From a virus (taxonomy: Duplodnaviria; Caudoviricetes), in the IMG/VR virus record IMGVR_UViG_3300028888_001628, positions 91,975 through 155,974 of that record: a DNA stretch of 64,000 nt. One strand, written 5' to 3'. Below, one piece after another: positions 1,247-48,019 of the stretch. Position 1 is the first letter of the stretch, and each line of letters begins with the position of its first letter. The notes below the pieces were generated by a model. It saw only the letters and a program-made list of their open reading frames with translations, was not told where the DNA came from and made no database searches. A program made the translations under genes and the position numbers.

Positions 1247-1906
1247 ATGTCTTCTAATAATAACATAAACAGAATTGCATTACTATACAAAGACTTATTA
1301 TCATCATCTATAAAGCCTCTTAGTGAATCAGATAAATCTATACTATTAAATATACAACCAATAAATAAAGTAGTCGCAGTGGGTGATATAGATCTTTCTA
1401 ACTGGAATGCATATGCTCTTACTTACCTCTTACACAATAAATTAGTTGCCCCAGTTGTATTAGATGAATCAAAGATTTATCAATCATGGCACGCGATGCG
1501 AACACATAATGAGAAAGTGGCTCATCCACAAACACTTATAAGTCAAAGTGTTGTTATTAGAATAATTGGCCTTGATAATTCTGCAAACATAAATGACTAT
1601 ATAAATTCTTTTATAAATATGTGTATAGCGTCAGATGAATGTAAGCTCATATTTGTAGTCGTAGATGGTAATAAGAAATTCTACAAAGATAATATTTATA
1701 TTAGAAAATCAAACTCTACATTTATAGAGACTTCTACTGGAAAACCCTATACAGTTGAAAGTACGCCTTTATGTATTTCACCTGATCAGATAGTGTTCTT
1801 TAATAGTAATAAGAAATTACAATCAAAGTCTACAAAGACAAGACAGATATCTATTAAAAATAGTACATCATGCACTTCAATGTTAGACGATAAAGACTTA
1901 TTCTAA
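1247..1906 (+). CDS. Hypothetical protein
   Basis: 219-aa ORF in operon context. Confidence 0.6.
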   Translation: MSSNNNINRIALLYKDLLSSSIKPLSESDKSILLNIQPINKVVAVGDIDLSNWNAYALTYLLHNKLVAPVVLDESKIYQSWHAMRTHNEKVAHPQTLISQSVVIRIIGLDNSANINDYINSFINMCIASDECKLIFVVVDGNKKFYKDNIYIRKSNSTFIETSTGKPYTVESTPLCISPDQIVFFNSNKKLQSKSTKTRQISIKNSTSCTSMLDDKDLF

Positions 1907-2961
1907 TGGGTTTACAGGCTATGAAAAATTTACATACATTTAAATATAGACGTTTATACACACTCGAAAGACGTATTAAAGAATTAGAAAGTTTACTATT
2001 AGAAGGTAAACGAGATCAAGAAATATTAAATAATTTTTTAGGCGATGATTACTATAATAAATTTCAAACTATAAAGAATAAAATAAAAGACCCTGAGTAC
2101 AAAGATATTTATAAAATAATTAAAAAGGATCCTGATGATGTAAAGAGTTATATTGACACTATACAATCTTCATCTGACAAGAGGCGTGAGGATAAGAAAG
2201 GTGCTCAATTACTATATGAAGATGATGACTGGAAAGTATATAGAATAACAACTTACCCAGCAGCTCAATTATATGGAAAGAACACAAAGTGGTGTATTAC
2301 TGGAAGATATCCTGGCGAGGAAGGTAAAGGTGAAGAATATTTTAATGATTATATAAATGATAACGATTTAGACGGTGGTTATTATTTTTATTTAAATAAA
2401 AAAGATCCATTTGAAAAATATTGCGTTCTTCAAAAAGATAATGGCAAAATACATTCTATCTGGGATGCGAGTGACTCTAAAAGAGGTTCGTTAAATATAA
2501 ATATAGGCCTTCCAGAGATACCACAAGTGAATTTTATTAAATCAACATCAGTTGATTTTGGAGGGTATAAGTGGACTAAGATAGGAGAGTTAAATGGTCA
2601 CTCTCTTTATCTGTGTTATGGAATAGTAAGAAATATGGCCTTTAATGATTCAAGTGAATCTAATAAATGGAGTGACTCTGACATTTGTAGATGGTTAAAC
2701 TCTAATTTTTACAGTACTTTACTCCCTGATGAAAAGTCAAAAATTATTCCTTATAAAGGAGACAAACTATTCTTATTGTCTAAAGAAGAATATAGAAAAT
2801 TTGAAAACAATATACCTATTATTGATAAATCCTGGTGGCTTAGATCATCAAGCAATATGCTCAACTTTGCTGACTATATTAATTATGATGGTAATGTACG
2901 AATTTTCGAAGTCGACTCTGGTAGGATAAGTGTCCGTCCAGCTGTTTTATTAGATGATTAA
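1906..2961 (+). CDS. Leader-tagged protein with a 'G..TKWC' domain and C-terminal DUF6273-like domain
   Basis: LERRIKELE leader; AAQLYGKNTKWCITG; C-terminal W..SD.C.WLN..FY...LFLLS.EEY...WWLRS...VRPAV. Confidence 0.7.
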   Translation: MGLQAMKNLHTFKYRRLYTLERRIKELESLLLEGKRDQEILNNFLGDDYYNKFQTIKNKIKDPEYKDIYKIIKKDPDDVKSYIDTIQSSSDKRREDKKGAQLLYEDDDWKVYRITTYPAAQLYGKNTKWCITGRYPGEEGKGEEYFNDYINDNDLDGGYYFYLNKKDPFEKYCVLQKDNGKIHSIWDASDSKRGSLNINIGLPEIPQVNFIKSTSVDFGGYKWTKIGELNGHSLYLCYGIVRNMAFNDSSESNKWSDSDICRWLNSNFYSTLLPDEKSKIIPYKGDKLFLLSKEEYRKFENNIPIIDKSWWLRSSSNMLNFADYINYDGNVRIFEVDSGRISVRPAVLLDD

Positions 2962-2991
2962 GATCTGTTTTAGATATAATGAGGTTAAAAT

Positions 2992-3663
2992 ATGAATCAT
3001 AAATTAGAAAATCGAATAGCTCGTCTTGAACGTATTATTAAAAATGAAAAACACAGATTTAAATCTAAATATGTTTATGAGGCTGAACAACAGTCTAATA
3101 ACAGGATTGAATTAGGTGGTTACACATGGACAAAAATAGGAAATATGAAAGGCTATCCTATTTATTTGTGTGATGAGTTTGTACAGTTGATGGCTTTTGA
3201 TGGAAGAGAAGAATCAAATGATTGGGAAGACTCTGATATTCGTAAATGGTTAAATTCTGGTTTTTACAATACTCTATCTACAGAAGAGAAATCTGAGATT
3301 TCTCCTTTTGAAGGTGATAGATTGTTTTTATTGTCTGAAGATGAATATGAAAAGTTTAAGGGTAATATATCTAAGATGAATAATTGGTGGTGGCTCAGAA
3401 CGTCACTTCCAGATTCAAGTAGTGCTGTTGCGTTTGTTCATCGAGATGGTGATATTGATTATACATATGCTAACTACCCAAAAGCTGGTGTTCGCCCTGC
3501 TGTTTTATTAAACGTAGTAGATAGGGAAAAATTAGACCAGCTGTTAGATAAAATTAGGGATGCTTACGCAAACTACAAGTCACTATGCAATGATTTTATT
3601 GATGAGGGTGGTGATGAAGATGAAATTGATGGTATCATCCATGATATAAATCAAGTTCTATAA
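2992..3663 (+). CDS. Leader-tagged DUF6273-like protein
   Basis: LENRIARLE leader; DWEDSDIRKWLN..FY...LFLLSEDEY...WWWLRT...GVRPAV; paralogous to C-terminus of 1906..2961. Confidence 0.75.
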   Translation: MNHKLENRIARLERIIKNEKHRFKSKYVYEAEQQSNNRIELGGYTWTKIGNMKGYPIYLCDEFVQLMAFDGREESNDWEDSDIRKWLNSGFYNTLSTEEKSEISPFEGDRLFLLSEDEYEKFKGNISKMNNWWWLRTSLPDSSSAVAFVHRDGDIDYTYANYPKAGVRPAVLLNVVDREKLDQLLDKIRDAYANYKSLCNDFIDEGGDEDEIDGIIHDINQVL

Positions 3664-3738
3664 TATAAAAATAGAAAAGTATATAAATTTTATAAATATA
3701 TAATTGTATATTATTTAAATAAAATTATGAGGTAAGTT

Positions 3739-4086
3739 ATGATTAAAAGAAAAGCTACTTTAGAACAACGTATTAGTCGTCTTGAACGTGCATTACGAAA
3801 GAATGAAGGTTTTGGTTATAGATTAAAACCAGGTGATGTAGTTGAAGATGTGGACGGGAGAACAGGTGTTGTTGCTGCAGTTGGCCTAGCTGGAAATCTG
3901 TTTAAGAAATTTAGATCTAGATTATGTGATAGCAGTATTGATGAGATTATGGATCTTATGAGTGAAGATCCAAGTTGGGAATCAATTAGCGATTGTGTTG
4001 TAGTTTGTTATGATGACACATCTGATATGGATGGTGGTGATTGTGCTTTATGGACTGATCCTGAAAATGGGTTAGATCTTATCTAA
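3739..4086 (+). CDS. Leader-tagged small protein (SH3/KOW-like start)
   Basis: LEQRISRLE...KNE leader then LKPGDVV..DGRTGVV. Confidence 0.65.
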   Translation: MIKRKATLEQRISRLERALRKNEGFGYRLKPGDVVEDVDGRTGVVAAVGLAGNLFKKFRSRLCDSSIDEIMDLMSEDPSWESISDCVVVCYDDTSDMDGGDCALWTDPENGLDLI

Positions 4087-4119
4087 TCTTACTAAAGATA
4101 ATTAACATAACAAATAAAT

Positions 4120-4150
4120 AAACCCTGGTAGTTAATTCTATCAGGGTTTT
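4120..4150 (+). terminator. Rho-independent terminator
   Basis: aaaccctggtag/ctatcagggtttt hairpin. Confidence 0.7.
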
Positions 4151-32440: not shown

Positions 32441-32516
32441 CGCTTGAGTTACTTTTCTGCGGTCATTTAATGCAGTTACTAACATAAACAAACACTTTAT
32501 GAAGTTGAGATATACT

Positions 32517-33020
32517 ATGAATAGTGATCTAGAGTTTAGAGTTTCTAAATTAGAAAGGCTAATCTTACGTAAAATAAAATCTAGTAATCGTATTTTAGAG
32601 AAACGTATTGCTAGGCTTGAATCAATAAGGTTACCTATTGATTCAAAGTTTGTATATATTATTAATTCAACAATGACTGATAATAATTTCTATTTTATAT
32701 CTGATGATAAGTCAAAGCTAAAGTCATTAATTGACAAAATCACAAAATTATTTTTGGAATCAACCTACTGTGAAGACGATGATGAGCGTGATTTATTGTT
32801 TAACAGGATTATTGATTTATGCAAAGTGAATAATATTCAATACGCTGATGATATAGATGAAAGCCCAATTGTAACATATGCTGAGTATCTTGATTCCATT
32901 GGGATTGATCCGTACGAAGATGAATATGATAAATCAATAGATCTTGATGAAGAAATTATAGTTGATAATGATAAACCATATACTTTTAAAGTAATTGGTA
33001 AACATCACAGTAGATTTTAA
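32517..33020 (+). CDS. Leader-tagged acidic protein (two leader copies)
   Basis: LEFRVSKLER and LEKRIARLES. Confidence 0.65.
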   Translation: MNSDLEFRVSKLERLILRKIKSSNRILEKRIARLESIRLPIDSKFVYIINSTMTDNNFYFISDDKSKLKSLIDKITKLFLESTYCEDDDERDLLFNRIIDLCKVNNIQYADDIDESPIVTYAEYLDSIGIDPYEDEYDKSIDLDEEIIVDNDKPYTFKVIGKHHSRF

Positions 33021-33129: not shown

Positions 33130-34524
33130 ATGAATTATTTAGAAAGAAGATTAAGTATTTTAGAAAGACGGATGATAGAAGCTATTGGTAGTCAGGTAAT
33201 ATCACTAAGCCTTTCAAATATTTCTAACTTTTATAAAAGCTATATTAAAGAGAATAAACAAAAAATGATATCCGAGTTAAATAGAATCGGGTATTATGTT
33301 TTAAAGAATAAAGTCTCTATTGGAAATAGTCCGACTACTACAAAAGATATTCAAATCTGTACTTACTTTGCCAGCATGGATTTTATAGATGAATGTAATG
33401 CTGCATTAGCAAATAAGTACAATGTAAGTGTCGATATTCAGAGTGTAGGTGGATTCTTTGTTCCAGCTACAAATGAATTAGTAGTAATCGTAAAAGTTTA
33501 TAATGATGATTTAGAAAAATCGTTAAAAGACGCTGATATCAGATCTACAATAGAGCACGAATTAACTCACGCGTTTGATCACACAAACAAAGATAGAAGA
33601 TTAGCTGATCAGAATAACGTTCCAGGTGTAGGTGAGAATTTCTTGTCTATGTGTGCGTATTTAGGTTGCGCTTCAAGATCTGATATTTTCAATCTAATGG
33701 GAACTGATATACTGACTAACGGTGCAGCATCAGAGTGTATTTATTCTATTAGCATTATTTTGTATAAGCTATTTACTATTACAGAATTCAATGCTCACCA
33801 GATGTCAGATCTAGACAGTCTTCATAAAGTAGACATTAATAGATCAGATAGAGTTAGAAAGGCATTACGTAAAGATATCCTAACTGACACGAAATTAACA
33901 GAAAGAAATTTAAAGTCAGCTATTAAAATAACACCTGAAAAATCGCCTGAACTATGGAAGATAGTTGGAAATGTTCTTACATATATGGGCTATAATTTAG
34001 ACGGTAAATCACCATCTGCAGTTTATCAATTCTTTAAACGTGAAAGTAGAAAGCTATTCGATAAATTCATTTCTAGAAAGATGAAGAATCAAGTGAAAGC
34101 GATTATTTCTTTACGTGAGAAGAATAATTTAAAAGAGAAAATTATTTCTTGTATAAAAAATAATGATATGCAGAGAGGTGTTTCATTTTGGTTTTCTCCA
34201 TCAGGCGACACAAACTCATATCTGTGCAGAATTACAGCCTCTACAAGCACTGTAGCACTTACTATTAATCGTGAACGTGTAAAACTATATGGTAATGCAG
34301 ATGCAATCTATAAACGGGCTGTAGATGCAAACAATGATAGAAATAGAGCAGCTTTTGAATTTGCCATAGACAATCTTGTCGATATTATAGTTCAATCTAT
34401 AGAACGTAACTTTAATGATATTAAATATGATCCTGTTTATGATATTACAATTCCACAGGATGAGTTACAGATTAGTAAATCAAATAAAATCTCTAGTAGA
34501 TTTGCTGATTTAGACTGGGATTAA
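33130..34524 (+). CDS. Leader-tagged zincin-like metallopeptidase
   Basis: LERRLSILE leader; GGFF strand, IEHELTH (HExxH), downstream TEFNAH. Confidence 0.65.
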   Translation: MNYLERRLSILERRMIEAIGSQVISLSLSNISNFYKSYIKENKQKMISELNRIGYYVLKNKVSIGNSPTTTKDIQICTYFASMDFIDECNAALANKYNVSVDIQSVGGFFVPATNELVVIVKVYNDDLEKSLKDADIRSTIEHELTHAFDHTNKDRRLADQNNVPGVGENFLSMCAYLGCASRSDIFNLMGTDILTNGAASECIYSISIILYKLFTITEFNAHQMSDLDSLHKVDINRSDRVRKALRKDILTDTKLTERNLKSAIKITPEKSPELWKIVGNVLTYMGYNLDGKSPSAVYQFFKRESRKLFDKFISRKMKNQVKAIISLREKNNLKEKIISCIKNNDMQRGVSFWFSPSGDTNSYLCRITASTSTVALTINRERVKLYGNADAIYKRAVDANNDRNRAAFEFAIDNLVDIIVQSIERNFNDIKYDPVYDITIPQDELQISKSNKISSRFADLDWD

Positions 34525-35004: not shown

Positions 35005-35006
35005 TT

Positions 35007-35252
35007 ATGAATAAGAAATTAGAATCAAGAATTGCAAGATTAGAAAGAATGATGAATCGTAAGTCGGTTAAAAATGAATCTATGCTTACTAATGATCTAA
35101 ATAAGGTTGTTCGCAGTCTTTCAATGGCTGATAGAGTACTTGTTGAACTTGTCAATGATTATTATGGTACTGATAATCCAATGAGAGATAGATGGAATTC
35201 AATGGCTAATCAGATTGAAGATATGATTAGTGAGCTTAGAGGGATGGTCTAA
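35007..35252 (+). CDS. Leader-tagged small helical protein
   Basis: ggaggt SD; MNKKLESRIARLERMMNRKSVKNE. Confidence 0.7.
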   Translation: MNKKLESRIARLERMMNRKSVKNESMLTNDLNKVVRSLSMADRVLVELVNDYYGTDNPMRDRWNSMANQIEDMISELRGMV

Positions 35253-35917: not shown

Positions 35918-35929
35918 GGTGTAAAATAA

Positions 35930-36238: not shown

Positions 36239-36250
36239 TTTGGGTTAGAT

Positions 36251-36676: not shown

Positions 36677-36725
36677 TTTGTTAATATGATTTAAAAAGAA
36701 CATTTATATTCTAATAGGTATAAGT

Positions 36726-36962: not shown

Positions 36963-37212
36963 TTTTAAGATTGTAATTAATGGTAAAGAGTGTTCATGTA
37001 CTAAATGTGATAAAGTATATGTAGAGTTTGATAGATCAGTAGAAAGAAGCGATATTGATTATACAGAGCTAAATAGTTTGATTGAGTCTTTCAATATCCC
37101 AAGAGAGCCTATCTCATGCACAATCCATATTAAAAAGAAAAGCCCTAACTATAAAAGAATACATAAACTTTTCAAGAAGCTATACAGGGAATGTAATCAA
37201 AATGAGAACTGA
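36955..37212 (+). CDS. Hypothetical protein
   Basis: ORF overlapping its neighbours. Confidence 0.45.
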   Translation: MNDFKIVINGKECSCTKCDKVYVEFDRSVERSDIDYTELNSLIESFNIPREPISCTIHIKKKSPNYKRIHKLFKKLYRECNQNEN

Positions 37213-37457
37213 CGAAGAATTAATTGCTGAACACAATGTTCAGATCATAGCATCTGTGTTGCTTGAAGTAATAAACGTATTTTGCAAAGTCGAAGGTTGC
37301 GAAAATAGATATATTAGAGATCTTGGAGATGCATTATTTCACAAGTATGGCGAGCAATTAAAAGATATTGTTGATAATGGAAATAGCATATAAAGATTAA
37401 GTATTTAGTTAGTAAACTTAATGCATTTAATGATATAATGAAAGAGGCTTGTAAATA

Positions 37458-38126
37458 ATGGACGATACTGATGAAAGCAGATATATGTGGACTATTGTAT
37501 TTAATAATTCTCCATATACAATTTTAAATGATGAATCTTTTGATGTAAGTAATACAATTTATGTAAGTAGTCTTAATAGTGAAATTTTAAATACACTGTC
37601 AGATATATCTCTTAATATTGTAGGCGTATATAGTGAAGAAACATATAAAGCGTTTACAAAATGGATAAACGATATCTTTAAAGTATCACCGCCAGCATAT
37701 GATTTTGAGACATTTGGCAAATTATTAAAATTTAACGAAAATGGTGTTTTACTTCAAACATATAATCTTGTAAATATATATCCAAAATCAGTCACTTGCG
37801 GTGATTTTTATAGAAATAGACTATTAATTGATGTTAGGTTAAATTGTACAATAATTCATCAAAATGAATATTGCAGTACTATAAAAGTCAATAATGATTC
37901 TGTAAAAACTAAAATTGATACACCTGCGAGTAAAGAGGAGAATAATACGATGGACACTAGTATGGTTAAACCTATTACCAATATGCTTGATGAGATTGAT
38001 TCTTTATACAACGAGATTAATGGTAATGATGATTTATACGATGAAGACTTTGTTGACGCATTAAATGACTATAAAGGGGTTCTTAAAGATAATCTTGTAG
38101 AGCTCATTAGAAATAATTGTAAATGA
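37458..38126 (+). CDS. Tail-tube (T4 gp19)-like fold protein outside the tail module
   Basis: ETYKAFTKWI...GKLLKFNENGVLLQTYNLVNIYPKSV..GD pattern. Confidence 0.5.
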   Translation: MDDTDESRYMWTIVFNNSPYTILNDESFDVSNTIYVSSLNSEILNTLSDISLNIVGVYSEETYKAFTKWINDIFKVSPPAYDFETFGKLLKFNENGVLLQTYNLVNIYPKSVTCGDFYRNRLLIDVRLNCTIIHQNEYCSTIKVNNDSVKTKIDTPASKEENNTMDTSMVKPITNMLDEIDSLYNEINGNDDLYDEDFVDALNDYKGVLKDNLVELIRNNCK

Positions 38127-38184
38127 CTATCTATAAACTATAGTGTAAATCTTAGTTCTTAAAATACTACGAGCTTATAATTAT

Positions 38185-38562
38185 ATGAAAAGACATAAAA
38201 CACAGTATAATAAAGAGTTTGTCGTAAATAATCATACAGTAAATATTGAGCTGTTTTCACAATGTGTTACGTCTAACCCACAAGAAAGATCTTATCGAAA
38301 GAAGCTATGTAAAGTAACATTCTTAGGTGCTGTTATTAATAATAAAAGAAAAAGTGTAGATATAAATTTCTCAAGCATGAGAGCAGCAACTGTATTTATT
38401 GCTAATAATATTGACATTCATACAATGACTATTAATGTATTTGGTGAACAGTACAGCGCTAGCACAATAGTACTGTTATGCAATTATAAATTATACACTA
38501 TCTACAGTATAAACAACAAAGATGTTTGGATGCAGTCTTTAGAATATAACAATATAATCTAA
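38185..38562 (+). CDS. Hypothetical protein
   Basis: ORF. Confidence 0.5.
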   Translation: MKRHKTQYNKEFVVNNHTVNIELFSQCVTSNPQERSYRKKLCKVTFLGAVINNKRKSVDINFSSMRAATVFIANNIDIHTMTINVFGEQYSASTIVLLCNYKLYTIYSINNKDVWMQSLEYNNII

Positions 38563-38615
38563 TAATTATATCACATGAGTCTTTATAGATTAATTACGCT
38601 TTAAGGATATAATTT

Positions 38616-39119
38616 ATGATTGACGAGTCATATTTGCAGTTACACACGTTAGCTGTAGAACTATATAAGCTTGGTATGCGACAAGCCGCAGGAGATTTTG
38701 ACTATTTAGCGTCTTGGTTGGATTCTGCTAATTGGAAAGGGCAAGATGGCGTTAGAGTTGGTGTTATACCCAATGGAAAGCAAGAAAGTGGATCTACTCT
38801 TCCACCCATTCCATGTTTTAGCGAAAACGATATTATTAGATGTAGTGATTTAGATACTGCTAATATAGTTCTTAATGCAGTGTATCAGTGCATCGGTGAA
38901 ATAAAAGCTTCTGCAGTTGACATTGATGTTTTAGAATCGCTCGACTGTTTTGAGACTTATACAGAAGAAGTAATTGAAGAAGGTGGTGGTGATCCACCTG
39001 TTCCACCAACCCCGCCAGTTCCACCTCCAACTTGTGGATTTAAGATTATTACTATCGATCTTATAACAGATAAAGAGTCTTCATGTAGTGCACCTAATAT
39101 AGATTATATAGACTTATAA
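38616..39119 (+). CDS. Hypothetical protein with Pro-rich linker
   Basis: GGGDPPVPPTPPVPPPT. Confidence 0.6.
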   Translation: MIDESYLQLHTLAVELYKLGMRQAAGDFDYLASWLDSANWKGQDGVRVGVIPNGKQESGSTLPPIPCFSENDIIRCSDLDTANIVLNAVYQCIGEIKASAVDIDVLESLDCFETYTEEVIEEGGGDPPVPPTPPVPPPTCGFKIITIDLITDKESSCSAPNIDYIDL

Positions 39120-39135
39120 TATAAAGGAACACATA

Positions 39136-40227
39136 ATGGCTTTCATATCATCTAGTTTTACTATGCCATCTTTCAGTAGTTCGAGATTACCTACTGTACA
39201 AGATTGGTGTGATTCATTACTAACGAATTTAAAAGACGCGTTTATAGCTGCCAATTCTGCATGGGAGCAAGTAGGTACGATTGAGACTATCGGAACAAAC
39301 ACCGATACAGGGTATGGAACAAGAACAATCCAAATACATTCAACCGTAAGTGGAAAGTACGTTCGGATATGGGCGTTTGCAAAAGACATAATAGGGAACT
39401 TTGTAGAAGACCCAACACCTAGCAATAGTTATAATGACCTTAAGATATACTTTGGAAACGTATTAAGATACTCTAGCAATTATGTTCGCTTCGGTAACTC
39501 ATACGTTACAGAGCTTTGCTTTGCAGTATCCAGTAATAATATAGGTGTAGACTTTGGTTTGGACTTAGGGCTATCTTGTCCTGCTTTCGGCATAGTAAAC
39601 TCTGAAATAAATGCAGACTATGGTACAACACTTTCAGATTCTTATAATAGTAGGACATTTAAGTTCGGTGCTGATCATATAGTCATAACAGATGGGAATA
39701 TGTTTTCAGTGCTTAGAAAAATCACTCCAAATACTACATGGCACGGTTGCTTCTACGCACCTGACATGATGATCCCAGCAAGTGGAGATGATACAAATAC
39801 CGAAGGTGTAGTAACTACTAGAAGTCTTGATCCAACTATCTATTTCGGTAATAATGAACCATATAACGCTGAACAAGAGTTGAGTATTCTATATAACGAT
39901 GCAAATGGTAATCACGACTTTAGAGGTTGGGGACTAGGAATATATAATAACAAAGGATATCTTTGTATGTCAGAGTCTGCAAGTAAATTACTATGTGCAC
40001 CTCTTGAGGCACATCTTTATACTTTAAATTATTCTGGGTCTACAATGCCAGGGATAGCTAACGGTGTCGGAACAAAGGGTTGGGTAAATACAGATTATTT
40101 AAGAAGTTGTAGTATAACACAGCTCACAAGTAGTTCTATCGGTCGTACATTTGTTGATGGAAGATGGGTTTGTCCAAAAGAAGGTGTTTTAATCTGTTGG
40201 GATAAAAATAATACAAACCCATTTTAA
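39136..40227 (+). CDS. Putative virion protein; paralog of 22181..23275
   Basis: Shared LLTN, G.Y.RIW.F, KIY.GN.L, DLGL..P.F, G.KG..N...R.CS, G.W.C...G.LI.W. Confidence 0.65.
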   Translation: MAFISSSFTMPSFSSSRLPTVQDWCDSLLTNLKDAFIAANSAWEQVGTIETIGTNTDTGYGTRTIQIHSTVSGKYVRIWAFAKDIIGNFVEDPTPSNSYNDLKIYFGNVLRYSSNYVRFGNSYVTELCFAVSSNNIGVDFGLDLGLSCPAFGIVNSEINADYGTTLSDSYNSRTFKFGADHIVITDGNMFSVLRKITPNTTWHGCFYAPDMMIPASGDDTNTEGVVTTRSLDPTIYFGNNEPYNAEQELSILYNDANGNHDFRGWGLGIYNNKGYLCMSESASKLLCAPLEAHLYTLNYSGSTMPGIANGVGTKGWVNTDYLRSCSITQLTSSSIGRTFVDGRWVCPKEGVLICWDKNNTNPF

Positions 40228-40311
40228 TACTATCGAGTTAAATTATTCTTATGTGCTATTGTATATAACTATTATTTAATTTACAATCACAGATAAAATG
40301 AGGTAATTAGT

Positions 40312-40524
40312 ATGAACAATCAAATTGAACTTGAGATTATTAATGATTCTGATAATCAGTTTTACGATCTAAATGGTATTTGCGAAAATGCAGATTCAAT
40401 TTTCTGGACACTTGTACCAAATGAAATGCTTTCTTTATGGAATCTTCCATTAAAGATTTATAATTGTTACACAAATGCAGATGCTGATTCAGTAGTTAAT
40501 AAGCTCGCTAATACAGACTTTTAA
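40312..40524 (+). CDS. Hypothetical protein
   Basis: gaggt SD. Confidence 0.5.
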   Translation: MNNQIELEIINDSDNQFYDLNGICENADSIFWTLVPNEMLSLWNLPLKIYNCYTNADADSVVNKLANTDF

Positions 40525-40526
40525 TT

Positions 40527-40802
40527 ATGGATGAATCTTTGATTTATACATTGGGAATGATTGGTAACTTACTATTCGGTGTTAAATCATTCCCACAAAT
40601 AATTACTTGTTATAAACAAAAGAGTACGTCTGGGATATCTAAATGGATGTTACTTCTTGATTTTGGTGGAAACACATTGTGTGCTGCATTTATTTACGGA
40701 ACAACCGGATTTACATTGTGGCCACAATTTGTAAATTATTTCTGTGCAACGTTATTCTTGCTAATATTGTTTATTATGACATTTTTATATAGAAATAATT
40801 AA
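40527..40802 (+). CDS. PQ-loop / SemiSWEET-like 3-TM membrane protein
   Basis: FPQII..YK.KST.GIS motif and three hydrophobic segments. Confidence 0.8.
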   Translation: MDESLIYTLGMIGNLLFGVKSFPQIITCYKQKSTSGISKWMLLLDFGGNTLCAAFIYGTTGFTLWPQFVNYFCATLFLLILFIMTFLYRNN

Positions 40803-40917
40803 ACAGACAAGATTCACGTTGTATATACTAATACGTAACACATTTGTTACAAACTAAACTTATTTAACATTAGTTGCTAATTAAAACTAATGTGTATTGT
40901 GAGGAGATATTTATAAT

Positions 40918-41658
40918 ATGAAAAATCTAATGTTTATTATGTTTGCTCTTTTCGCTTTCTGTTTTGTTTCATGTGAAGGCGATAAGAATGAAGCACCTGC
41001 AGAACCTAAGTGTGAACCTGCTTGTTTAGAAAACACAGAATGCAAGTGCGTCGAAAATGATTGCCATTGTGAAGCAGTCGTAGATCCTAAACCTGAAAAC
41101 GTCTGTGATCCTGCTTGCAAAGATACAGAAGAGTGTAAATGTGAAAATGACAAATGTGAATGTAAAGAAAAAGTTGTAGTTCCTGAGCCATGTAAATGTG
41201 AAGATGGCACTGATTGTCCTGAAGGTGATGCTGCTAAATGTGAAAAGCATGTAGTTGAAGATCCATGTAAAGATAAAGCCGCAGGTGATGAGTGTGGTGA
41301 GAATAAAATCTGTACTGCAGCTGAAGATGGTAAATTAGCTTGTATGGATAAGGTTGAAGAAAAACCTGCACCTAAATGTGAACCTGTTTGCAAAGATACA
41401 GAAGAATGCTTCTGTGAAGCTGACAAATGTGAATGCAAAGAAAAAGTCGTAACTGAAGAATGCTTCTGTGATGAAGAAAAGAAAGTTGCTTGCCCTGAAG
41501 GTGGAAAAGACGCTTGTGAAAAAGCTGAATCAGAACAACCTAAATGTGAACCTGCTTGTGAGGGTGAATCTGAATGTGTTTGCGAAGCTGACAAGTGTGA
41601 ATGCAAGGTTCCTGATAAAGTTGATCCAGAACCACAACCAGAAAATCCTGGTAAATAA
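40918..41658 (+). CDS. Cysteine-rich repeat lipoprotein
   Basis: gaggag SD; signal peptide ending FVSC (lipobox); 38 Cys, mostly in repeated modules. Confidence 0.75.
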   Translation: MKNLMFIMFALFAFCFVSCEGDKNEAPAEPKCEPACLENTECKCVENDCHCEAVVDPKPENVCDPACKDTEECKCENDKCECKEKVVVPEPCKCEDGTDCPEGDAAKCEKHVVEDPCKDKAAGDECGENKICTAAEDGKLACMDKVEEKPAPKCEPVCKDTEECFCEADKCECKEKVVTEECFCDEEKKVACPEGGKDACEKAESEQPKCEPACEGESECVCEADKCECKVPDKVDPEPQPENPGK

Positions 41659-41689
41659 TAACAATATAAATTACATATAAATAAAATTT

Positions 41690-41722
41690 AATCCCATACA
41701 AATACAGTGTATGGGATTTTTT
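41690..41722 (+). terminator. Rho-independent terminator
   Basis: aatcccataca...tgtatgggattttt. Confidence 0.75.
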
Positions 41723-41782
41723 GTATATCTAATTATACAATATTAGTATTTACATAAGATAATTGTTACAGAGGTTACATAA

Positions 41783-42751
41783 ATGTATAAAGACTATGAT
41801 AGAGAGTTAGAACGCAGGGTTAGAGATTTAGAACGAGCTGTTATTGATGAAGGTTTATTTGATAAGTTATTTAATAGAGATAAAGAATCATTTGATGTAA
41901 AAGATGTTATTAGTAAATTACCAAGTGCTTTATCATTTGGTAATAAAAAATCAAAGATGAATTGGAAATTAGACAAAGATGGTAAACCTATTATCACATC
42001 AAGTTTAGTTATCCCTCTTACTAATAAACCTGGAAATTTCATACAGCTCGTTACTGTATTATCATTAGGCTTGAAGAAAAAGATCTTCTCATTAAAACAG
42101 AGAATTACACAGTCTATAAATAACAAACAGACTTTAAAAGAAGACTTTCCATTATGGGAAAATGAATCATTTAAATCATTTAAAGATCTTTTAACAAAAG
42201 TAAAAGATTCACTAATGGATTCTACAACTGGAAAGATAAATGATCTTTTAAAGAAAGTTGGAATAAAAGAATCATTTTGTATATTAGAAGAAGACGAGGA
42301 TGAAGGCGTAATTCGTAAAGTTGGAAATAAATGGAAGATTCTTAAAAAGAATAGAAAGGATTATTGGGATGCAGACTATAAAACTAAAGCTGATGCTGAA
42401 GCTGCATTGAGAGCGTATTGGGCTAACAAGCGTGAGTGCAGAAAACATAATCATAAAATTTTAAAGTTAGAAGACTTTACACATGGTGATGGGCGAGATC
42501 TTTTAAAGAATGTACAGCATTATCTGATCAAAATATTTGGGCCAACTTTATACTTCGATCACGATACAGATACTTCTGTTGACCTCTTCTATAAAGGTTC
42601 ATTAGTTGCTGAACTACTATACAATAATAAAACTTCAGAGATAGTGATTATGCCTGACAATCAAGATATCGCACCAGTTGCTTTCTACGACACTTCAGAA
42701 TACGAAATACAAGATTACCTATCTGACTTGATTATTGGTGATATAAAGTGA
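41783..42751 (+). CDS. Leader-tagged multidomain protein
   Basis: LERRVRDLE..IDE leader; internal IRKVGNKWKI...YKTKADAEAAL module. Confidence 0.7.
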   Translation: MYKDYDRELERRVRDLERAVIDEGLFDKLFNRDKESFDVKDVISKLPSALSFGNKKSKMNWKLDKDGKPIITSSLVIPLTNKPGNFIQLVTVLSLGLKKKIFSLKQRITQSINNKQTLKEDFPLWENESFKSFKDLLTKVKDSLMDSTTGKINDLLKKVGIKESFCILEEDEDEGVIRKVGNKWKILKKNRKDYWDADYKTKADAEAALRAYWANKRECRKHNHKILKLEDFTHGDGRDLLKNVQHYLIKIFGPTLYFDHDTDTSVDLFYKGSLVAELLYNNKTSEIVIMPDNQDIAPVAFYDTSEYEIQDYLSDLIIGDIK

Positions 42752-42799
42752 TCTAGTCGATAGAATGGCTTAATTATCATCATTCAGCACTATAAAAAT

Positions 42800-42829
42800 A
42801 AACCCTCTATGAATTTCATAGAGGGTTTT
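42800..42829. terminator. Bidirectional terminator between convergent genes
   Basis: aaaccctctatgaa-t-ttcatagagggtttt flanked by A/T runs. Confidence 0.8.
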
Positions 42830-42838
42830 GATGTATTA

Positions 42839-43723
42839 TTACTTTGATAAGAATTTCTTAAACTGTTCTAGATCTTCTGCATCTTGATTTGCTTTTGCAC
42901 ACATACCAAATATTATGCGAGGAGATCCTGCACAAGTTAGTTTCATAATTCTGTACTCATTTGGCTTTTGATTTTTATCTGATAAGAACAACTTTAGATC
43001 ACCTACGTCTATATAGTTATTGTCGATAGTCTTGTTTAACTTAATAATCATTTTCTTCCCATCAAACTTTATCGATAATGGTTTTAATTTACTCTTTAAT
43101 TCAGATGTTACCTCGTCTCTATAAATAACAGGTAAATCAGTAGATCCACTAGAATAATATCGTGCATAAGCATTTATATCGAAGTACTTGCAAATATTTT
43201 TAGATGTATTTTTAAATATAGAAAATTCATTATTAAGAAATGTCATAAAGAACTCTACATTCTTACTCTTATAATAGTTACTTATCCAATCTGCAAATAC
43301 AGATTGGTCTAATTCTATCTTAACCTTACTTGTGTGAGGTTCAGTGAGCCTTACAAATGAGTCTATATTTGTGTTTATATAAGACATGATTTTATTAGCA
43401 GTTTCGTTACCTTTTGCTGTGTCAGAACACTCAAATACTTTACTATCTTCATTAAGTTTTATACCAAAACCAGTCGACTGCACACCGCAAATTTTATTAT
43501 TCTGTTCAGTCATCTTACATTCAATATAAAACTTATCGTCTACAAGAATATCTGAAACTGATCTATTATTTCCACCTCTTACTGTAAATTTATGATCTGG
43601 AAATTGTTTACGAAGATATCTTGCACATTTGTGCTCGAACTTGTCAGATTCTTTTGATTCATATATAATACTGTCTATAGAACTGTATATTTTATTTATG
43701 ATTAACATTTTATTTATTACCAT
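42839..43723 (-). CDS. PD-(D/E)XK restriction-endonuclease-like protein
   Basis: FE..C..YL...SDILV...YIECK catalytic pattern. Confidence 0.6.
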   Translation of the reverse strand: MVINKMLIINKIYSSIDSIIYESKESDKFEHKCARYLRKQFPDHKFTVRGGNNRSVSDILVDDKFYIECKMTEQNNKICGVQSTGFGIKLNEDSKVFECSDTAKGNETANKIMSYINTNIDSFVRLTEPHTSKVKIELDQSVFADWISNYYKSKNVEFFMTFLNNEFSIFKNTSKNICKYFDINAYARYYSSGSTDLPVIYRDEVTSELKSKLKPLSIKFDGKKMIIKLNKTIDNNYIDVGDLKLFLSDKNQKPNEYRIMKLTCAGSPRIIFGMCAKANQDAEDLEQFKKFLSK

Positions 43724-43821
43724 TAAGATTAACTATTTATCATAAAAATGTATATCTATATAGATAATTACAATTAGTTATCTATAACTAAATAATATTT
43801 CTTTTAGAGGTAGACGGTATT

Positions 43822-44817
43822 ATGGGAAAGAAAGTTTCAGAGTGCTGTGATCAGTGGAATGATTTACAAACAATGGCGCTCGCTGATAAAATGGATGTAG
43901 ATGCTTTTAAACCTTCACTGAATAATTGTAGCTCATTAGACGATTACGAGCTTAAAGTTCGTAATGGTGTTGAAGATAATATAGATCAGTGCAGATCTGA
44001 GTTTGGTGAGCTTGATCCAAATAATACAGCACAGTTAATGGCAATCGCAGCATTAGATTGTGTAGATGTTGACGCTATAGTTAAAGCTATAGTGGGATTC
44101 TACAGGCCACAGCTTTGTGTATTATCTTTAGAAAAGAGAGTTAATAAATTATACAATAGATTTGTAGAAAGTAAATCTAGGGTAAATGAGAGGGAAACAA
44201 CACCTGCTCATGATGGTGAGATCGCTGCATTTGACATTAAGACAAAATTCGATAAAGATGATCTTGACGTAGATTCTGAAGTTGATGTCAAAAATAAGAA
44301 AGACGCATGGATTTTGCGACTTATCTATAACGATGGAAATAAAGAAAATCTTTCAATGGTGAAGCCTAATGATGACAAAGATGATTATGTTATGACTTCA
44401 GATAAAGATAAGTTGAAAGTGAAGTTTTCAGATGATCCAGATGATGGTACTTTGAATGTCCCACAGACTGTAATAGATCATATTGCAAAGCAAATAGAGC
44501 AAGCTGAAAAGAATGCAGAAAATGATAAAAAGAATAATGATTCAGATCTTGCTCATGAGATCGCTTACGATATTAAGAAAGAATTTCCAAACTATGATAT
44601 GGAAGTTATTGAGGGCGATGCTGGAAGTAATAAGTGGTCTATTGAGATTGTATATAAAAATGGCAACAAAGATCATTTTGTAATTACAAAGATTGGTAAG
44701 ATTTACATTATGAGATCAGATGATTCTTTCATTTCAAAATTCACATTAGATGAATTAAAGAATTTCCCAAAGAAATTAAAATCACATATAGAAGATCACG
44801 TTAAAGAGGCCAAATAA
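43822..44817 (+). CDS. Acidic protein with internal leader-like motif and duplicated C-terminal domain
   Basis: LEKRVNKL; two EIA[FY]DIK..F...W...I.Y..GNK repeats. Confidence 0.65.
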   Translation: MGKKVSECCDQWNDLQTMALADKMDVDAFKPSLNNCSSLDDYELKVRNGVEDNIDQCRSEFGELDPNNTAQLMAIAALDCVDVDAIVKAIVGFYRPQLCVLSLEKRVNKLYNRFVESKSRVNERETTPAHDGEIAAFDIKTKFDKDDLDVDSEVDVKNKKDAWILRLIYNDGNKENLSMVKPNDDKDDYVMTSDKDKLKVKFSDDPDDGTLNVPQTVIDHIAKQIEQAEKNAENDKKNNDSDLAHEIAYDIKKEFPNYDMEVIEGDAGSNKWSIEIVYKNGNKDHFVITKIGKIYIMRSDDSFISKFTLDELKNFPKKLKSHIEDHVKEAK

Positions 44818-45446
44818 TGAGTAACATTCAAGGTTTAGATTTATATTCTTATGAAGAGATTGTGAATCTAGTTAGAGATTTCATAAATGATAAGCTTGAA
44901 GATAATGGTTATTTCTCTGATGACATTATCGTAAAAGATATTAAACTACATGGCTCTAGATTAAGAGGGCAGGCAAGAGATGATTCTGATCTTGATGTGG
45001 TTGTTCAATATGACGGCGATATCAGGGAAGATGACTTTTTCGATATGCTAAATGACGATCCTCTATATATCGATAATGTAGCAGTGGACATTAATCCTAT
45101 TAAAGAAGACATGGGTGATTATATGAATAGATCAGATCAATATGATAAGAAAAAGTTAGGTCTAGAAAATAAGAGATTAGAATCATTAGAAAAGCGTCTT
45201 GTTAAATTAGAAAAGAAATACGGAATAAATCTCAAACCAACTAACGAGATCGCACCTATTCTTGCAAAAATTATCCCAATGATTATTAAAAATCTTCCAT
45301 TAATTTTAAAAGCATTACCTACTTTGGTAGATGCTCTTAAAACAGATCAGATCAATGATAATAGTGAGAAGATTGATAAGATAAATAAATTCGTAGAAAT
45401 TGGTACCGAAATTGTAAATATGTTTAATAAAAATAGTGAGGCATGA
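44817..45446 (+). CDS. Pol-beta superfamily nucleotidyltransferase
   Basis: LHGSRLRG...DSDLDVVV...VDINP. Confidence 0.8.
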   Translation: MSNIQGLDLYSYEEIVNLVRDFINDKLEDNGYFSDDIIVKDIKLHGSRLRGQARDDSDLDVVVQYDGDIREDDFFDMLNDDPLYIDNVAVDINPIKEDMGDYMNRSDQYDKKKLGLENKRLESLEKRLVKLEKKYGINLKPTNEIAPILAKIIPMIIKNLPLILKALPTLVDALKTDQINDNSEKIDKINKFVEIGTEIVNMFNKNSEA

Positions 45447-45447
45447 T

Positions 45448-45660
45448 ATGAATAAAGATACATTAGAAAAACGTATTGCAAAACTTGAAAATGCACTTCG
45501 TAAACGATTTAAAAATGAAGAGTATGAGATGTCCGCATTTGAAGATTTTAAGAGCGAGCTTGCAGATCTTCTAGAGTATTACGGATTAGAGATGTATGCG
45601 GGTGGTAATAACGTCGTGTTTTCACATAATGGTGAAGACGTTGGTGTTTGGGACTATTAA
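45448..45660 (+). CDS. Leader-tagged small protein
   Basis: MNKDTLEKRIAKLENALRKRFKNE. Confidence 0.7.
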   Translation: MNKDTLEKRIAKLENALRKRFKNEEYEMSAFEDFKSELADLLEYYGLEMYAGGNNVVFSHNGEDVGVWDY

Positions 45661-45683
45661 TCGTAATAAAACTTAATATACTA

Positions 45684-45718
45684 TAAAATCCTATGTAAAT
45701 TATTTACATAGGATTTTA
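45684..45718 (+). terminator. Rho-independent terminator
   Basis: aaaatcctatgtaaat-t-atttacataggatttt. Confidence 0.75.
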
Positions 45719-45723
45719 TTTTT

Positions 45724-46200
45724 ATGGTAATTATTATGAAAGTACTACAAGAAGTAAATAAGATTTTTAACAAATACAAAGAATATGATTATATTGATTC
45801 TGATCTTTCTAAACACAGAATAAAGAGTATAGATGAATTTGAAAGACAGCGTGGAGGTATCTGCTGGGATTTCATTAGCCCTATATCACATCATCTCATC
45901 AGTAGAAATATTATTCACCATTGTTATTTCACTGAAGTACAGAAAGATAATAAAACAATCTCAACACATACTTACATAATAGTTAGAGATGGCTCGTTTT
46001 ATTATTGGATTGAATGCGCTTGGCAAAAGTACAAAGGTGTAAATCTTGTATTTTCGTATAAAGATATAGAGCGATTATTAAAAGAAGAATATAACGCAGA
46101 TGAAGTTCACACTGTTGTGTATGACCCAAACGCAGTAGAAGGTAATACAGCTGATGAATTTTTCGAGTATCTTAACAAAGAAGGAATAGAACTTACATAA
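45724..46200 (+). CDS. Transglutaminase/papain-like protein
   Basis: GGICWD...THTY...WIECAW candidate Cys-His-Glu triad. Confidence 0.55.
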   Translation: MVIIMKVLQEVNKIFNKYKEYDYIDSDLSKHRIKSIDEFERQRGGICWDFISPISHHLISRNIIHHCYFTEVQKDNKTISTHTYIIVRDGSFYYWIECAWQKYKGVNLVFSYKDIERLLKEEYNADEVHTVVYDPNAVEGNTADEFFEYLNKEGIELT

Positions 46201-46213
46201 ATGGAGACTAGCA

Positions 46214-46480
46214 ATGAACAGTTCATTTGGACAATCTGTTTTATCATTATATACTCTTATTGAAGGAAAGACTCTATCATACGGATATTCAAATCGTGAA
46301 ATACCAAGTGAAGTTAGAGACTTTCAGAATTTATTTAGATCAACACTTATTAGTTATATTGAAAATCATGATGATTTATCAAAGCATTTTCTTGAACTAT
46401 GTATAGATCACATTAAAGATATTTTAGATGAGAAATTTAACTTCTTAACTAATGTAGAGAGTAAACAAATATATGAATGA
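46214..46480 (+). CDS. Hypothetical protein
   Basis: ggag SD. Confidence 0.5.
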   Translation: MNSSFGQSVLSLYTLIEGKTLSYGYSNREIPSEVRDFQNLFRSTLISYIENHDDLSKHFLELCIDHIKDILDEKFNFLTNVESKQIYE

Positions 46481-47060
46481 AGAATCGTTATTTATAACAG
46501 ATGAACTAGGGAATGTCATTTCAACAAAAGATAATATAGATGAACAAGATATATATCTTAAATGCGATAATACTATAACTCAAAATCTAAATGAAGATCA
46601 TCTATCTTGGGATGAATACTTTGCAAATATTTCATTACTTGCTGCATTGCGTAGTAAAGATACAAATACAAAAGTAGGCGCTATCATTGTAGATAAGAAC
46701 AACAGAATCTTAGGAACTGGGTACAATGGATTACCTTCAGGAATAGATGAATCTCTGTTTCCAACAACGAATGATAAAGAACACAATTCATTTGAAAACA
46801 CAAAGTATCCTTATGTTATTCATGCTGAAATGAATGCACTATGTAATACGACTGTATTTGATGTAAGTGGTTCAAAGATATACTGTACATTATATCCTTG
46901 TTGCCATTGTGCAAAGTTATTAGTACAGCGTGGAATCTCCGAAGTTATATATTTATCTGACAAACATCATAATGATCCAGAGTATATAGCTGCTAGGAAA
47001 TTATTTAATGCAGCTAATGTCATTACTAGACAGTACTTAGGAAGAGTATTTCTTCTTTGA
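46473..47060 (+). CDS. dCMP deaminase
   Basis: WDEYF, RSKD..TKVGA, GYNG, HAE, PCxxC. Confidence 0.93.
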   Translation: MNEESLFITDELGNVISTKDNIDEQDIYLKCDNTITQNLNEDHLSWDEYFANISLLAALRSKDTNTKVGAIIVDKNNRILGTGYNGLPSGIDESLFPTTNDKEHNSFENTKYPYVIHAEMNALCNTTVFDVSGSKIYCTLYPCCHCAKLLVQRGISEVIYLSDKHHNDPEYIAARKLFNAANVITRQYLGRVFLL

Positions 47061-47086
47061 GCTATTCTTCTTATTAAAACTAATCT

Positions 47087-47113
47087 ACCCTAACATTTAT
47101 TATGTTAGGGTTT
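47087..47113 (+). terminator. Terminator ending the + strand block
   Basis: accctaacat-ttatt-atgttagggttt. Confidence 0.7.
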
Positions 47114-47710
47114 AAATTTATATATAGACATTGAGAATATCTCTATCGTAAATAGATAAAATTTACAAATATAGTTTCAATGGTATTTCTGAGATAATAT
47201 CTATAGGGATTCTTCATCATCTAGAAAATTCAATCTAAATTATATCATCTTCTAGAAAGTACAACTGAAAATATATTATTCAGAAATATAATTCCAATTA
47301 TATTTTATAGAATATATTAATCGTATTATCAGATTATATAACAGGAAAATATATATTCTGTCTATGATTAAAGACATAAAAATACTAACCCAATTGAACT
47401 CGCCTCTTGGGGTATATCTTATATCATCTCTATAAATAGAATTTCTATAATATATAAAAATAAATTTATCACGGAACCCGATCAGCCTAACACAAATGAA
47501 TCAGCGCGTAGCATAATCCGACCAGCATCTGCTTTCAACTTCATCCGTTTAGTTACTGCGCCTCAGAGAGTTGCTCACGGTACAATGTCATCAGCGGTGT
47601 AATTAATAAAACTATTCATCATATAATATTAGTTTCTATTACTAGAGAAATCTTAACTGATTCTATAAATATAGATATTGAAGAAAAAAATAAAAATTTT
47701 TTCTGAATAA

Positions 47711-47746
47711 AAAATCCCAATAACTACTGTTATTGGGATTAAAAAA
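47711..47746 (-). terminator. Terminator ending the - strand block
   Basis: aatcccaataac-tact-gttattgggatt with flanking A-runs. Confidence 0.75.
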
Positions 47747-47767
47747 TAATTTAGATAATTTAGAATT

Positions 47768-48019
47768 TTAATAAGAACCTACATTGATTCCCCAGTTATC
47801 TGCGACATCTTGAAGCTCATCTAACATAGAATTTATAGTCTCATAACAATCATCTGAGTCAAGATCACTTGAAGCGTTCTGTAAAAAGATAAGCGCATTA
47901 TAAGCATCTTTGATAGCTTCACTGATGTCAGCTGTATTAAACATCTGCTCGTTCTTAACAGCTCTTTTAGAAAGCATTCTTTCTAGACGAGCAATTCGAC
48001 TTTCTAATTTATTATTCAT
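47768..48019 (-). CDS. Leader-tagged small helical protein
   Basis: MNNKLESRIARLERMLSKRAVKNE, nearly the same leader as 35007..35252. Confidence 0.7.
   Translation of the reverse strand: MNNKLESRIARLERMLSKRAVKNEQMFNTADISEAIKDAYNALIFLQNASSDLDSDDCYETINSMLDELQDVADNWGINVGSY

Follow-up and report, generated by a model that had tools for sequence, protein, structure and literature searches.

The window, by which we mean the whole 64,000 bp stretch analysed here (positions 91,975–155,974 of record IMGVR_UViG_3300028888_001628), contains nine ORFs that carry near the N-terminus a short leader with the strict pattern LE-x-R-[ILVM]-x-x-LE. Eight are on the plus strand, starting at 1906, 2992, 3739, 32499, 33130, 35007, 41783 and 45448, and one, at 47768, is on the minus strand. 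The source phage is T4-like and uncultured, and comes from sheep and goat guts. The first product (1906..2961, 351 aa) has its leader, LERRIKELESLLLE, at residues 20–33, followed by a GKRDQEILNNF body and a C-terminal DUF6273 domain. In its orthologues in the related contigs G001 and G003 the junction of leader and body, E↓GK(R/H)DQE (the arrow marks the junction here and below), is kept. The product of 2992..3663 (223 aa) has a DUF6273 body preceded by a leader at residues 5–13 and IIKNE at residues 14–18. Among its homologues the leader is long, consists of the short MRLRKVE↓ or, in the bacterial-type DUF6273 proteins, is missing altogether.

The 115 aa product of 3739..4086 (leader at residues 8–16, then RKNE↓G) has a small acidic body of no known family, and 32499..33020 (173 aa) encodes two tandem leaders, at residues 11–19 and 33–41, and an acidic body. 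Small bodies also follow the leader in 35007..35252 (81 aa; MMNRKSVKNE↓S, helical) and 45448..45660 (70 aa; ALRKRFKNE↓E, acidic). In the minus-strand ORF, 47768..48019 (83 aa), the leader is followed by MLSKRAVKNE↓Q; this is the last gene of a leftward block, and a terminator lies 3' of it at 47740–47713. The 464 aa product of 33130..34524 has a leader at residues 4–12 that closes with MIE↓AIGSQ; the leader of its G001 orthologue is shorter and closes with YLE↓AISSQ. Judged from HELTH at residue 143, the body is possibly a metallopeptidase. The label zincin, given to it previously, agrees with the HExxH motif, though all Pfam matches are sub-threshold.

The 322 aa product of 41783..42751 (leader at residues 9–17, then AVIDE↓G) has a C-terminal domain that in G001 is fused to a nucleotidyltransferase domain. 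A Pol-beta-type nucleotidyltransferase domain is also found in 44817..45446 (plus strand, 209 aa), where an internal copy of the leader at residue 124 is followed by PTNE, and this ORF looks like a fusion across a tag. In 43822..44817 (plus strand, 331 aa) there is only a degenerate internal look-alike, LEKRVNKLYNRFVE, in which LEKRVNKLY (residue 103) is not followed by the second LE, and with an HMM E-value of 0.47 it is not a significant member. A prior reading of the window made without database searches, here called the sequence-only reading, had listed 11 leader-bearing proteins; the nine N-terminally tagged ORFs and the internal copy in 44817 stand and 43822 is removed. The leader peptides that it quoted were all found where it had placed them.

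When the whole 155,974 bp record was searched, 18 copies of the strict pattern were found in 17 ORFs, whereas 300 residue shuffles gave a mean of 0.01 copies and a maximum of 1. The start of 15 of the 18 copies falls within the first 30 residues. The genome-wide scan with a profile that the sequence-only reading had called for returned 20 ORFs with an N-terminal tag, nine of them inside the window, and others in related contigs. Ten further tagged ORFs are located upstream of the window, at genome positions 24131, 26798, 28584, 30496, 33377, 35527, 38276, 49693, 84476 and 84806. The codons used for the invariant Arg of the leader are mixed (CGT 9, AGA 8, CGA 4, AGG 1), indicating that the conserved entity is the peptide, on which selection acts, and not a DNA repeat. 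The bodies of the 20 tagged ORFs fall into 13 clusters. The system is common to four related contigs, with 20 profile-tagged ORFs in this record and 12, 5 and 6 in G001, G002 and G003, and clustering by body sorted 45 tagged proteins from the four genomes into 24 groups. The cultured relatives LIS04, GXN1 and HSE3, which gave 0 to 1 weak profile match, are without the system. Judged by sequence, the tag is a movable module found on 24 or more unrelated body families.

The leader is 15–30 residues long and has the sequence pattern of a two-heptad coiled coil. In the helix L-E-x-R-[ILV]-x-x-L-E-[RK]-h-h, L, I, L and h occupy a/d core positions, and the invariant Arg and Glu are at the spacing of a g-to-e' pair. 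Amphipathic helices this short are common coiled-coil elements. The claim that the leader is an N-terminal tag holds for most copies, but others are at C-termini, where they are preceded by x-D-E or x-x-E, or between the domains of fusion proteins.

The same helix is found at the C-terminus of two conserved head-module proteins, an acidic 146 aa protein and a 309 aa protein, p309. The C-terminal motif is present on both in all four relatives and in all full-length representatives, and for p309 in 120/120 of the homologues among the matches listed. In every relative both genes are located in the stretch from the capsid-protein gene to the head-tail adaptor gene, and both products have conserved KNE sites. 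The 146 aa protein appears to be scaffold-like, as suggested by its acidic helical composition, gene position and KNE sites and not by homology; its C-terminus has a weak match to Pfam Sugarporin_N. Foldseek found no match to p309 in the PDB, and VIA-align returned T3SS chaperones, YbjN and FP domains with Z 5–7, which is within the range of common arrangements.

A prohead protease of the T4 gp21 family is encoded (PF03420, Peptidase_S77, 49.4 bits with a cut-off of 27; phrog_207). Compared with the T4 gp21 structure 5jbl it gave an E-value of 3e-4, with His and Ser aligned to the catalytic positions. Cleavage by the T4 enzyme follows L/I-x-E, and in gp22 it falls on a Glu-Ala bond (PMC9026906). 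In the proteome of 47,781 residues there are 15 KNE tripeptides, and 8/15 follow a leader at a distance of no more than 14 residues (binomial p about 3e-15), a concentration that recurs in G001–G003. The other KNE sites include those at residues 52–54 of the major capsid protein, in the scaffold-like protein and in p309. The capsid-protein site, KNES at residues 52–55, is conserved in all relatives at the end of the propeptide, and is within about 9 residues of the mapped T4 mature N-terminus. Outside the tagged and head proteins KNE was observed 4 times against 12.7 expected, though in G001, with 12 against 16.4, the depletion is not clear.

In the family with AKQVGTLYH bodies, 52/54 metagenomic members have a Glu directly before [A/G/S]KQVG, although the leaders are 9 to 29 residues long and sometimes internal, and the conserved body starts right after a Glu in six other families too. 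At P3 the leader sites mostly have K, R, L, I, V or F. No obvious x-N-E site is present near some leaders, including those at 32499 and genome position 33377. Clipping after Glu at KNE or xxE had been proposed; the sites are present and conserved, and the cutting itself is predicted.

Domains in the tagged bodies include a predicted ADP-ribosyltransferase (ART) fold, ankyrin, DUF6273 and nucleotidyltransferase. Most tagged bodies had no match in Pfam or PHROGs, and no cultured phage matched the cargo region in a megablast search. A structure model of the AKQVGTLYH body (pLDDT 78) aligned to Tpt1 with VIA-align Z 8.9 (rmsd 2.2, 90 residues aligned) and to DarT with Z 8.5 (132 aligned); the top rows were all ART folds, and the best Foldseek E-value was 3e-3. 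H28, S63, T65, R66, E122 and E123 are invariant or nearly so in the family alignment. As modelled, the AKQVGTLYH body is an ART-fold domain, and the start of the predicted domain coincides exactly with the junction of leader and body. This would parallel T4 Alt, an ADP-ribosyltransferase bearing a capsid-targeting sequence (CTS) (PMC9026906).

The sequence-only reading had described the motif as absent from tail, metabolic and early-cassette genes. None of the proteins with a recognised replication, tail or capsid-shell function has the tag, but the tagged genes are interleaved with those for DNA polymerase, NrdD, NrdG and nucleotide metabolism. Moreover, two of them, at genome position 24131 and, on the minus strand, at window position 47768, close operons headed by strong early-type promoters. 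The description is correct in part only. The promoter element TTGTATAT is found upstream of some tagged genes and also of replication genes, and is thus uninformative on timing. TTGTATA[TA], which has the look of an extended -10, stands before replication genes as well as structural genes and therefore does not date the tagged genes either. A scan for consensus promoters found fewer sites than its own shuffles. The read layout over window positions 30001–50000 consisted of fragmented contigs, with joints towards about 47,680–47,745 that have 20–24-letter sides. Contigs from RNA libraries cover some tagged genes, which is not proof of transcription or timing.

In T4 the CTS is carried by IPI, IPII, IPIII and Alt and is removed by the gp21 prohead protease (Mullaney and Black 1996, as reviewed in PMC9026906, PMC3012670, PMC5694885). 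The system described here is like it in having a common N-terminal peptide on otherwise unrelated, fast-evolving proteins, a leader that ends in Glu at a gp21-type site, an encoded gp21-family protease, a capsid-protein propeptide that ends in the same kind of site, a cargo with a predicted ART fold and genes scattered outside the head module. However, inspection of the leader alignment and position counts revealed no similarity to MKTYQEFIAE, the leaders are 15–30 rather than about 10 residues long, and the short 7–9-residue leaders of relatives (MLIKKPIIE, MRLRKVE) are also unlike the T4 CTS. The preferred site is h-K-N-E here and L/I-x-E in T4, and there are about 20 tagged genes per genome instead of four. 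Tags are also found at C-termini and between fused domains, and two head proteins end in a matching helix, a hint at an explicit docking partner.

Propeptides of phiKZ, 201phi2-1 and SPN3US offer a second comparison. In those phages a protease related to gp21 cleaves many internal proteins of the head after Glu (PMC5694885, PMC10052503), as we infer from sequence for the phage studied here. Paralogues with conserved N-termini and a candidate autocleavage site in the protease tail are further likenesses. On the other hand, the A/S/G-x-E sites of phiKZ and SPN3US, with a small P3, differ from the leader sites here, propeptides in the three phages often exceed 100 residues, and these phages are not known to share a short coiled-coil tag across unrelated bodies. 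The phage described here is also smaller and does not belong to the phiKZ type. Encapsulin cargo-loading peptides are likewise short terminal peptides common to unrelated cargo, and direct it into an HK97-fold shell. They differ from the leaders in their C-terminal location, in binding directly to the shell protein, in being retained on the cargo and in not forming coiled coils.

We favour, at rather better than even odds, an interpretation in which the leader, a two-heptad amphipathic helix of the coiled-coil kind, serves like the CTS of T4 as a propeptide that directs proteins to the prohead (the capsid interior). The system is probably an enlarged, zipper-style version of the T4 signal for loading into the head and then clipping. 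The leader helix would zip onto the near-identical C-terminal helix of the scaffold-like protein and p309, and the tagged protein would thereby be built into the assembling core. The gp21-family protease would then cut after the Glu that closes the leader, mostly at h-K-N-E and otherwise at h-x-E, before a small residue. It may act on the same site at the end of the major-capsid-protein propeptide, in the scaffold-like protein and p309 and in its own tail. By analogy with T4 IPI–III and Alt, the freed bodies would remain inside the head and probably pass into the host along with the DNA. That a coiled-coil tag loads varied proteins into the head had been proposed in the sequence-only reading; all sequence tests that were run fit this, with packaging, cleavage, late expression and ejection as its predicted steps.

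The heptad pattern and the g/e' charge pair would suit homotypic pairing, and the occurrence of the tag at N-termini, at C-termini and internally, on products of genes that lie among replication genes, is compatible with a generic self-association module that makes accessory proteins dimeric or trimeric. Head loading would then play no part, and the Glu would mark a helix or domain boundary. We consider this unlikely, as it does not explain why an invariant Glu also ends short 9-residue leaders of the same body family that are not coiled coils, why the end of the capsid-protein propeptide and the head proteins have KNE as well, or why the helix is at the C-terminus of two conserved head-module proteins.

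Docking of the tag, via the two proteins with the C-terminal motif, onto another phage assembly, for example a hub for replication or transcription or a part of the neck or tail, appears quite improbable; in that case these two proteins would not be internal head proteins. Neither p309 nor the 146 aa protein is of a recognised family, the weak resemblance of p309 domains is to T3SS-chaperone and YbjN folds and not to any known scaffold, and some tagged genes may be expressed early. Nevertheless, the location of both partner genes in the head module of every relative, their conserved KNE sites, like that of the capsid propeptide, and the acidic, helical make-up of the 146 aa protein, typical of scaffolds, argue for the head. 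A RiPP-like role, with the leader as the recognition sequence of a modifying enzyme, is suggested by the single radical-SAM match, a weak one, between tagged genes (window 34609–34755). This ORF is 157 aa, falls below the Pfam cut-off and is near nrdD, as expected of an NrdG activase, and it was rejected as a modifying enzyme. As none of the possible target residues Cys, Ser, Thr or Gly is conserved in the leader and the matching helices on head proteins would be unexplained, such a role is very improbable.

To our knowledge, recognition of the T4 CTS by the prohead core has never been structurally resolved. For the targeting propeptide favoured here, tag and likely partner are visibly the same helix, giving a simple hypothesis that is open to peptide-binding and co-expression tests. 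We tentatively suggest that recognition is a homotypic zipper, in which one self-complementary two-heptad helix makes up the cargo leaders as well as the C-termini of the scaffold-like protein and p309. Any protein with the helix at either end or between domains would then be drawn into the core and released at flanking Glu sites. Such a docking code, explicit in the sequence, would be the first for a T4-type head, and foreign proteins could be loaded into T4-type capsids by means of a compact tag that works at any position. If the targeting interpretation is correct, the tag labels the proteins that a large clade of uncultured ruminant-gut phages delivers into its hosts, among them a predicted ART-fold enzyme, ankyrin-repeat proteins and a possible metallopeptidase, and the many small acidic tagged proteins could be anti-defence factors. 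The injected-protein repertoire of the whole rumen phage clade would then be readable from sequence.

All of the leader peptides quoted in the sequence-only reading were found at their coordinates in the window. The strict pattern LE.R[ILVM]..LE is present in 18 copies in the proteome, against a mean of 0.01 in 300 shuffles, and 15 of the 18 lie within the first 30 residues of a protein. When a 25-column profile of the leader (A1) was used to scan the whole record and its relatives, 20 N-terminally tagged ORFs were returned from this record, with nine in the window and ten more upstream of it, together with 12, five and six from the related IMG/VR contigs G001, G002 and G003, respectively. The AT-rich phage genomes GXN1, HSE3 and LIS04, which are of similar size and served as the negative control, yielded no match to the profile (GXN1 and HSE3) or one weak match (LIS04, E 0.02). 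Of the two internal copies claimed, that in the ORF starting at window position 44817 is genuine, and that in 43822 was not significant in the profile search. As the codons used for the invariant Arg of the tag differ (CGT, AGA, CGA and AGG), selection acts on the peptide rather than on a DNA repeat.

The 155,974 bp virus contig, of which the window is bases 91,975–155,974, is approximately 31% G+C and ~68% complete (CheckV). Its closest cultured relatives are Listeria phage LIS04, Bacillus phages HSE3 and SP-15 and Streptococcus phage GXN1, with capsid-protein identities of only ~30%, and near-identical DNA is found in sheep and goat gut metagenomes. The capsid protein is 69–82% identical to those of four related IMG/VR contigs, G001 (204 kb, 95% complete) to G004, which were compared as full contigs. 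The portal protein, prohead protease and gp23-like major capsid protein are all encoded upstream of the window. The protease (genome 73423–74406; L004:13423–14406) belongs to the T4 gp21 family (Pfam Peptidase_S77, 49 bits; PDB 5jbl, E 3e-4), and its His and Ser fall at the catalytic positions when aligned to 5jbl. A C-terminal extension of ~130 residues contains a conserved F/L-N-E site, and its last segment, LE(R/K)MC..FRR..YE, is also conserved and faintly echoes the tail of an acidic, scaffold-like 146 aa head-module protein. The extension possibly serves the protease itself, for targeting or autocleavage.

Aligned on its core, the tag has the consensus (K/T)-L-E-x-R-[I/V/L]-[A/S]-[R/K]-L-E-[R/K/S]-h-h, with its hydrophobic residues in the 4-3-4 spacing of a/d core positions. 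The invariant Arg and the second Glu stand five residues apart, as would suit a salt bridge from g to e' between parallel helices of a coiled coil. In the AlphaFold model of one tagged protein, the leader is a free helix (residues 3–17) that is followed by lower-confidence coil at the junction (18–24) and then by the folded body.

The tripeptide KNE occurs only 15 times in the 47,781 residues of the proteome, and eight of these are no more than 14 residues after a leader versus 0.07 expected (binomial p ~3e-15); post-leader enrichment is likewise seen in G001–G003. Among orthologues, the spacer between helix and KNE has indels and the KNE is retained. Residues 52–54 of the capsid protein are also KNE, within ~9 residues of the mapped mature N-terminus of T4 gp23, and KNES is kept in all relatives. 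The acidic 146 aa protein has one KNE, as does p309, a 309 aa head-module protein in which it sits in a predicted interdomain linker and is kept in 120/120 among the homologues listed. T4 gp21 cleaves after Glu in L/I-x-E, with gp22 cut at a Glu-Ala bond (PMC9026906), and phiKZ-type proteases likewise cleave after Glu (PMC5694885). The clearest evidence for a putative protease-type site closing the tag comes from the AKQVGTLYH body family, where Glu directly precedes [A/G/S]KQVG in 52 of 54 metagenomic members, whether what lies before it is a 9-residue basic leader, a coiled coil of 20–29 residues or a stretch inside a fusion protein. Six further families have a conserved body right after the Glu (E↓[KR]T.GRG, E↓GKRDQE, E↓GGASGHM, E↓AI[GS]SQ, KNE↓F and KNE↓[SA], with the arrow at the junction). 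Among the tagged ankyrin paralogues, a 402 aa protein (genome 32122–33330; L002:12122–13330) starts MKYKIVKNE↓S, which looks like a short leader of T4 length ending in KNE, and in metagenomes some homologues of the tagged bodies begin with comparably short leaders (MLIKKPIIE↓ and MRLRKVE↓).

Clustering the bodies of the 45 proteins with an N-terminal tag in four genomes gave 24 groups, of which 13 are represented in this record. Many of the bodies are confined to a single genome, and the majority are acidic. The DUF6273 and nucleotidyltransferase domains named earlier were recovered, the latter of Pol-beta type, and ankyrin repeats are a further recognisable domain. The protein at 33130, which had been read as a zincin, does contain an HExxH motif, and its metallopeptidase matches are all sub-threshold. 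Bacterial-type DUF6273 homologues begin directly with the domain whereas members from this phage clade bear a long or short leader, so it looks as though the tag was grafted onto domains that had been captured. The AKQVGTLYH...SFTR...EE proteins (genome 49693–50691, L003:9693–10691; and 33377–34378, L002:13377–14378) have a body that is predicted to adopt an ADP-ribosyltransferase (ART) fold starting exactly at the junction. VIA-align placed it nearest Tpt1/KptA (Z 8.9 to Tpt1) and DarT (Z 8.0–8.5, 130–133 residues aligned), and every top row was an ART fold. A tagged body with an ART-like predicted fold recalls T4 Alt, an ADP-ribosyltransferase that bears a capsid-targeting sequence (CTS) and is injected along with the DNA (PMC9026906). 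One paralogue and many homologues from metagenomes carry ankyrin repeats fused to this body. In another protein (genome 38276–39040; L002:18276–19040), two leader copies flank a run of ~45 Asp/Glu residues, a make-up like that of the acidic region of the scaffold-like protein or of a DNA mimic.

Tagged genes flank those for DNA polymerase, NrdD, an NrdG-like protein and nucleotide-metabolism enzymes. Two are located between nrdD (30404–32440) and a 157 aa ORF (window 34531–35004) whose radical-SAM match is sub-threshold and which probably encodes the NrdG activase; a third follows that ORF. The 246 aa ORF at window 40918–41658, with a lipoprotein-signal-like N-terminus (LFAFCFVSC) and EGDKNE directly after it, may encode a phage lipoprotein. 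Thirteen near-identical strong promoters on the minus strand (window 49866–63782; genome 141840–155756) drive a leftward block, with the layout TTTACA, 17 nt, a TATAAT-like element and then a TCATAAATTAAATGGAAAATGG..CCATTTAA hairpin, and the plus strand has five more such promoters, at genome 14.6–20.3 kb. In two cases (genome 24131; window 47768, minus strand), the last gene downstream of strong early-type promoters with the leader hairpin is a tagged one. The common TTGTATAT element did not separate timing classes. Summed contig depth at window 47343–48009 was 3–5x that of neighbouring bins in 4/4 metagenome and metatranscriptome runs. Many contigs end or jump at ~47,665–47,745, around the terminator hairpin adjoining the tagged gene, which may mark a variable region's shared boundary, although the sides that support it are short.

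Two conserved genes between those for the capsid protein and the head-tail adaptor encode p309 (genome 76392–77321, upstream of the window; L004:16392–17321) and the 146 aa protein, a putative scaffold. Both products end in the tag helix and are weak matches to the leader profile. The ending of p309 is ...LSRRITKLENLF... (LE(K/R)RLSRLESLY in relatives), and that of the 146 aa protein is ...IENRLAALERRF... (LE(E/D)RLAALERRF in relatives). The p309 ending is kept in 120/120 among the homologues listed and in all full-length representatives recovered from a library of 1.84 billion proteins, where the family is narrow at only 17 representative clusters. Judged by their sequences, the two proteins are candidate docking partners for the tag. 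In relatives, the helix is C-terminal in some proteins, after V-D-E or D-E; one of these is a cytidylyltransferase-like enzyme, and one metagenomic protein is a single-chain fusion of such an enzyme with the helix and an AKQVG body. From these C-terminal, internal and fused copies, we conclude that the helix behaves as a module that does not depend on position and has Glu sites at its flanks. The p309 model (pLDDT 71) has two alpha/beta domains with a long helix after each. Domain 2, like the ESM Atlas model, bears a weak likeness to type III secretion class-I chaperones, YbjN and FP domains (VIA-align Z 5–7; TM <0.5), scores in the range of common arrangements.

A plain oligomerisation module would account for neither the invariant Glu behind short non-helical leaders nor the link between KNE and the capsid propeptide. 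The tag could dock to a non-capsid assembly only if p309 and the 146 aa protein were not head-internal. For a reading of the tag as a RiPP-like recognition sequence, this phage offers no supporting enzyme beyond the NrdG-like ORF. We consider it probable from these patterns that the tag is a head targeting and clipping signal; that it docks by a specific zipper mechanism is a more tentative proposal.

As predicted from sequence, the tag system would work like the T4 CTS and in the same enzymatic context. However, the tag has no sequence relation to the CTS, is longer and of coiled-coil build, has the site preference h-K-N-E, marks ~20 genes per genome and seems itself to identify the partner to which it would dock. 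If true, a role for p309 as a chaperone-like cargo receptor, hinted at by its weak fold likeness, would be of interest.
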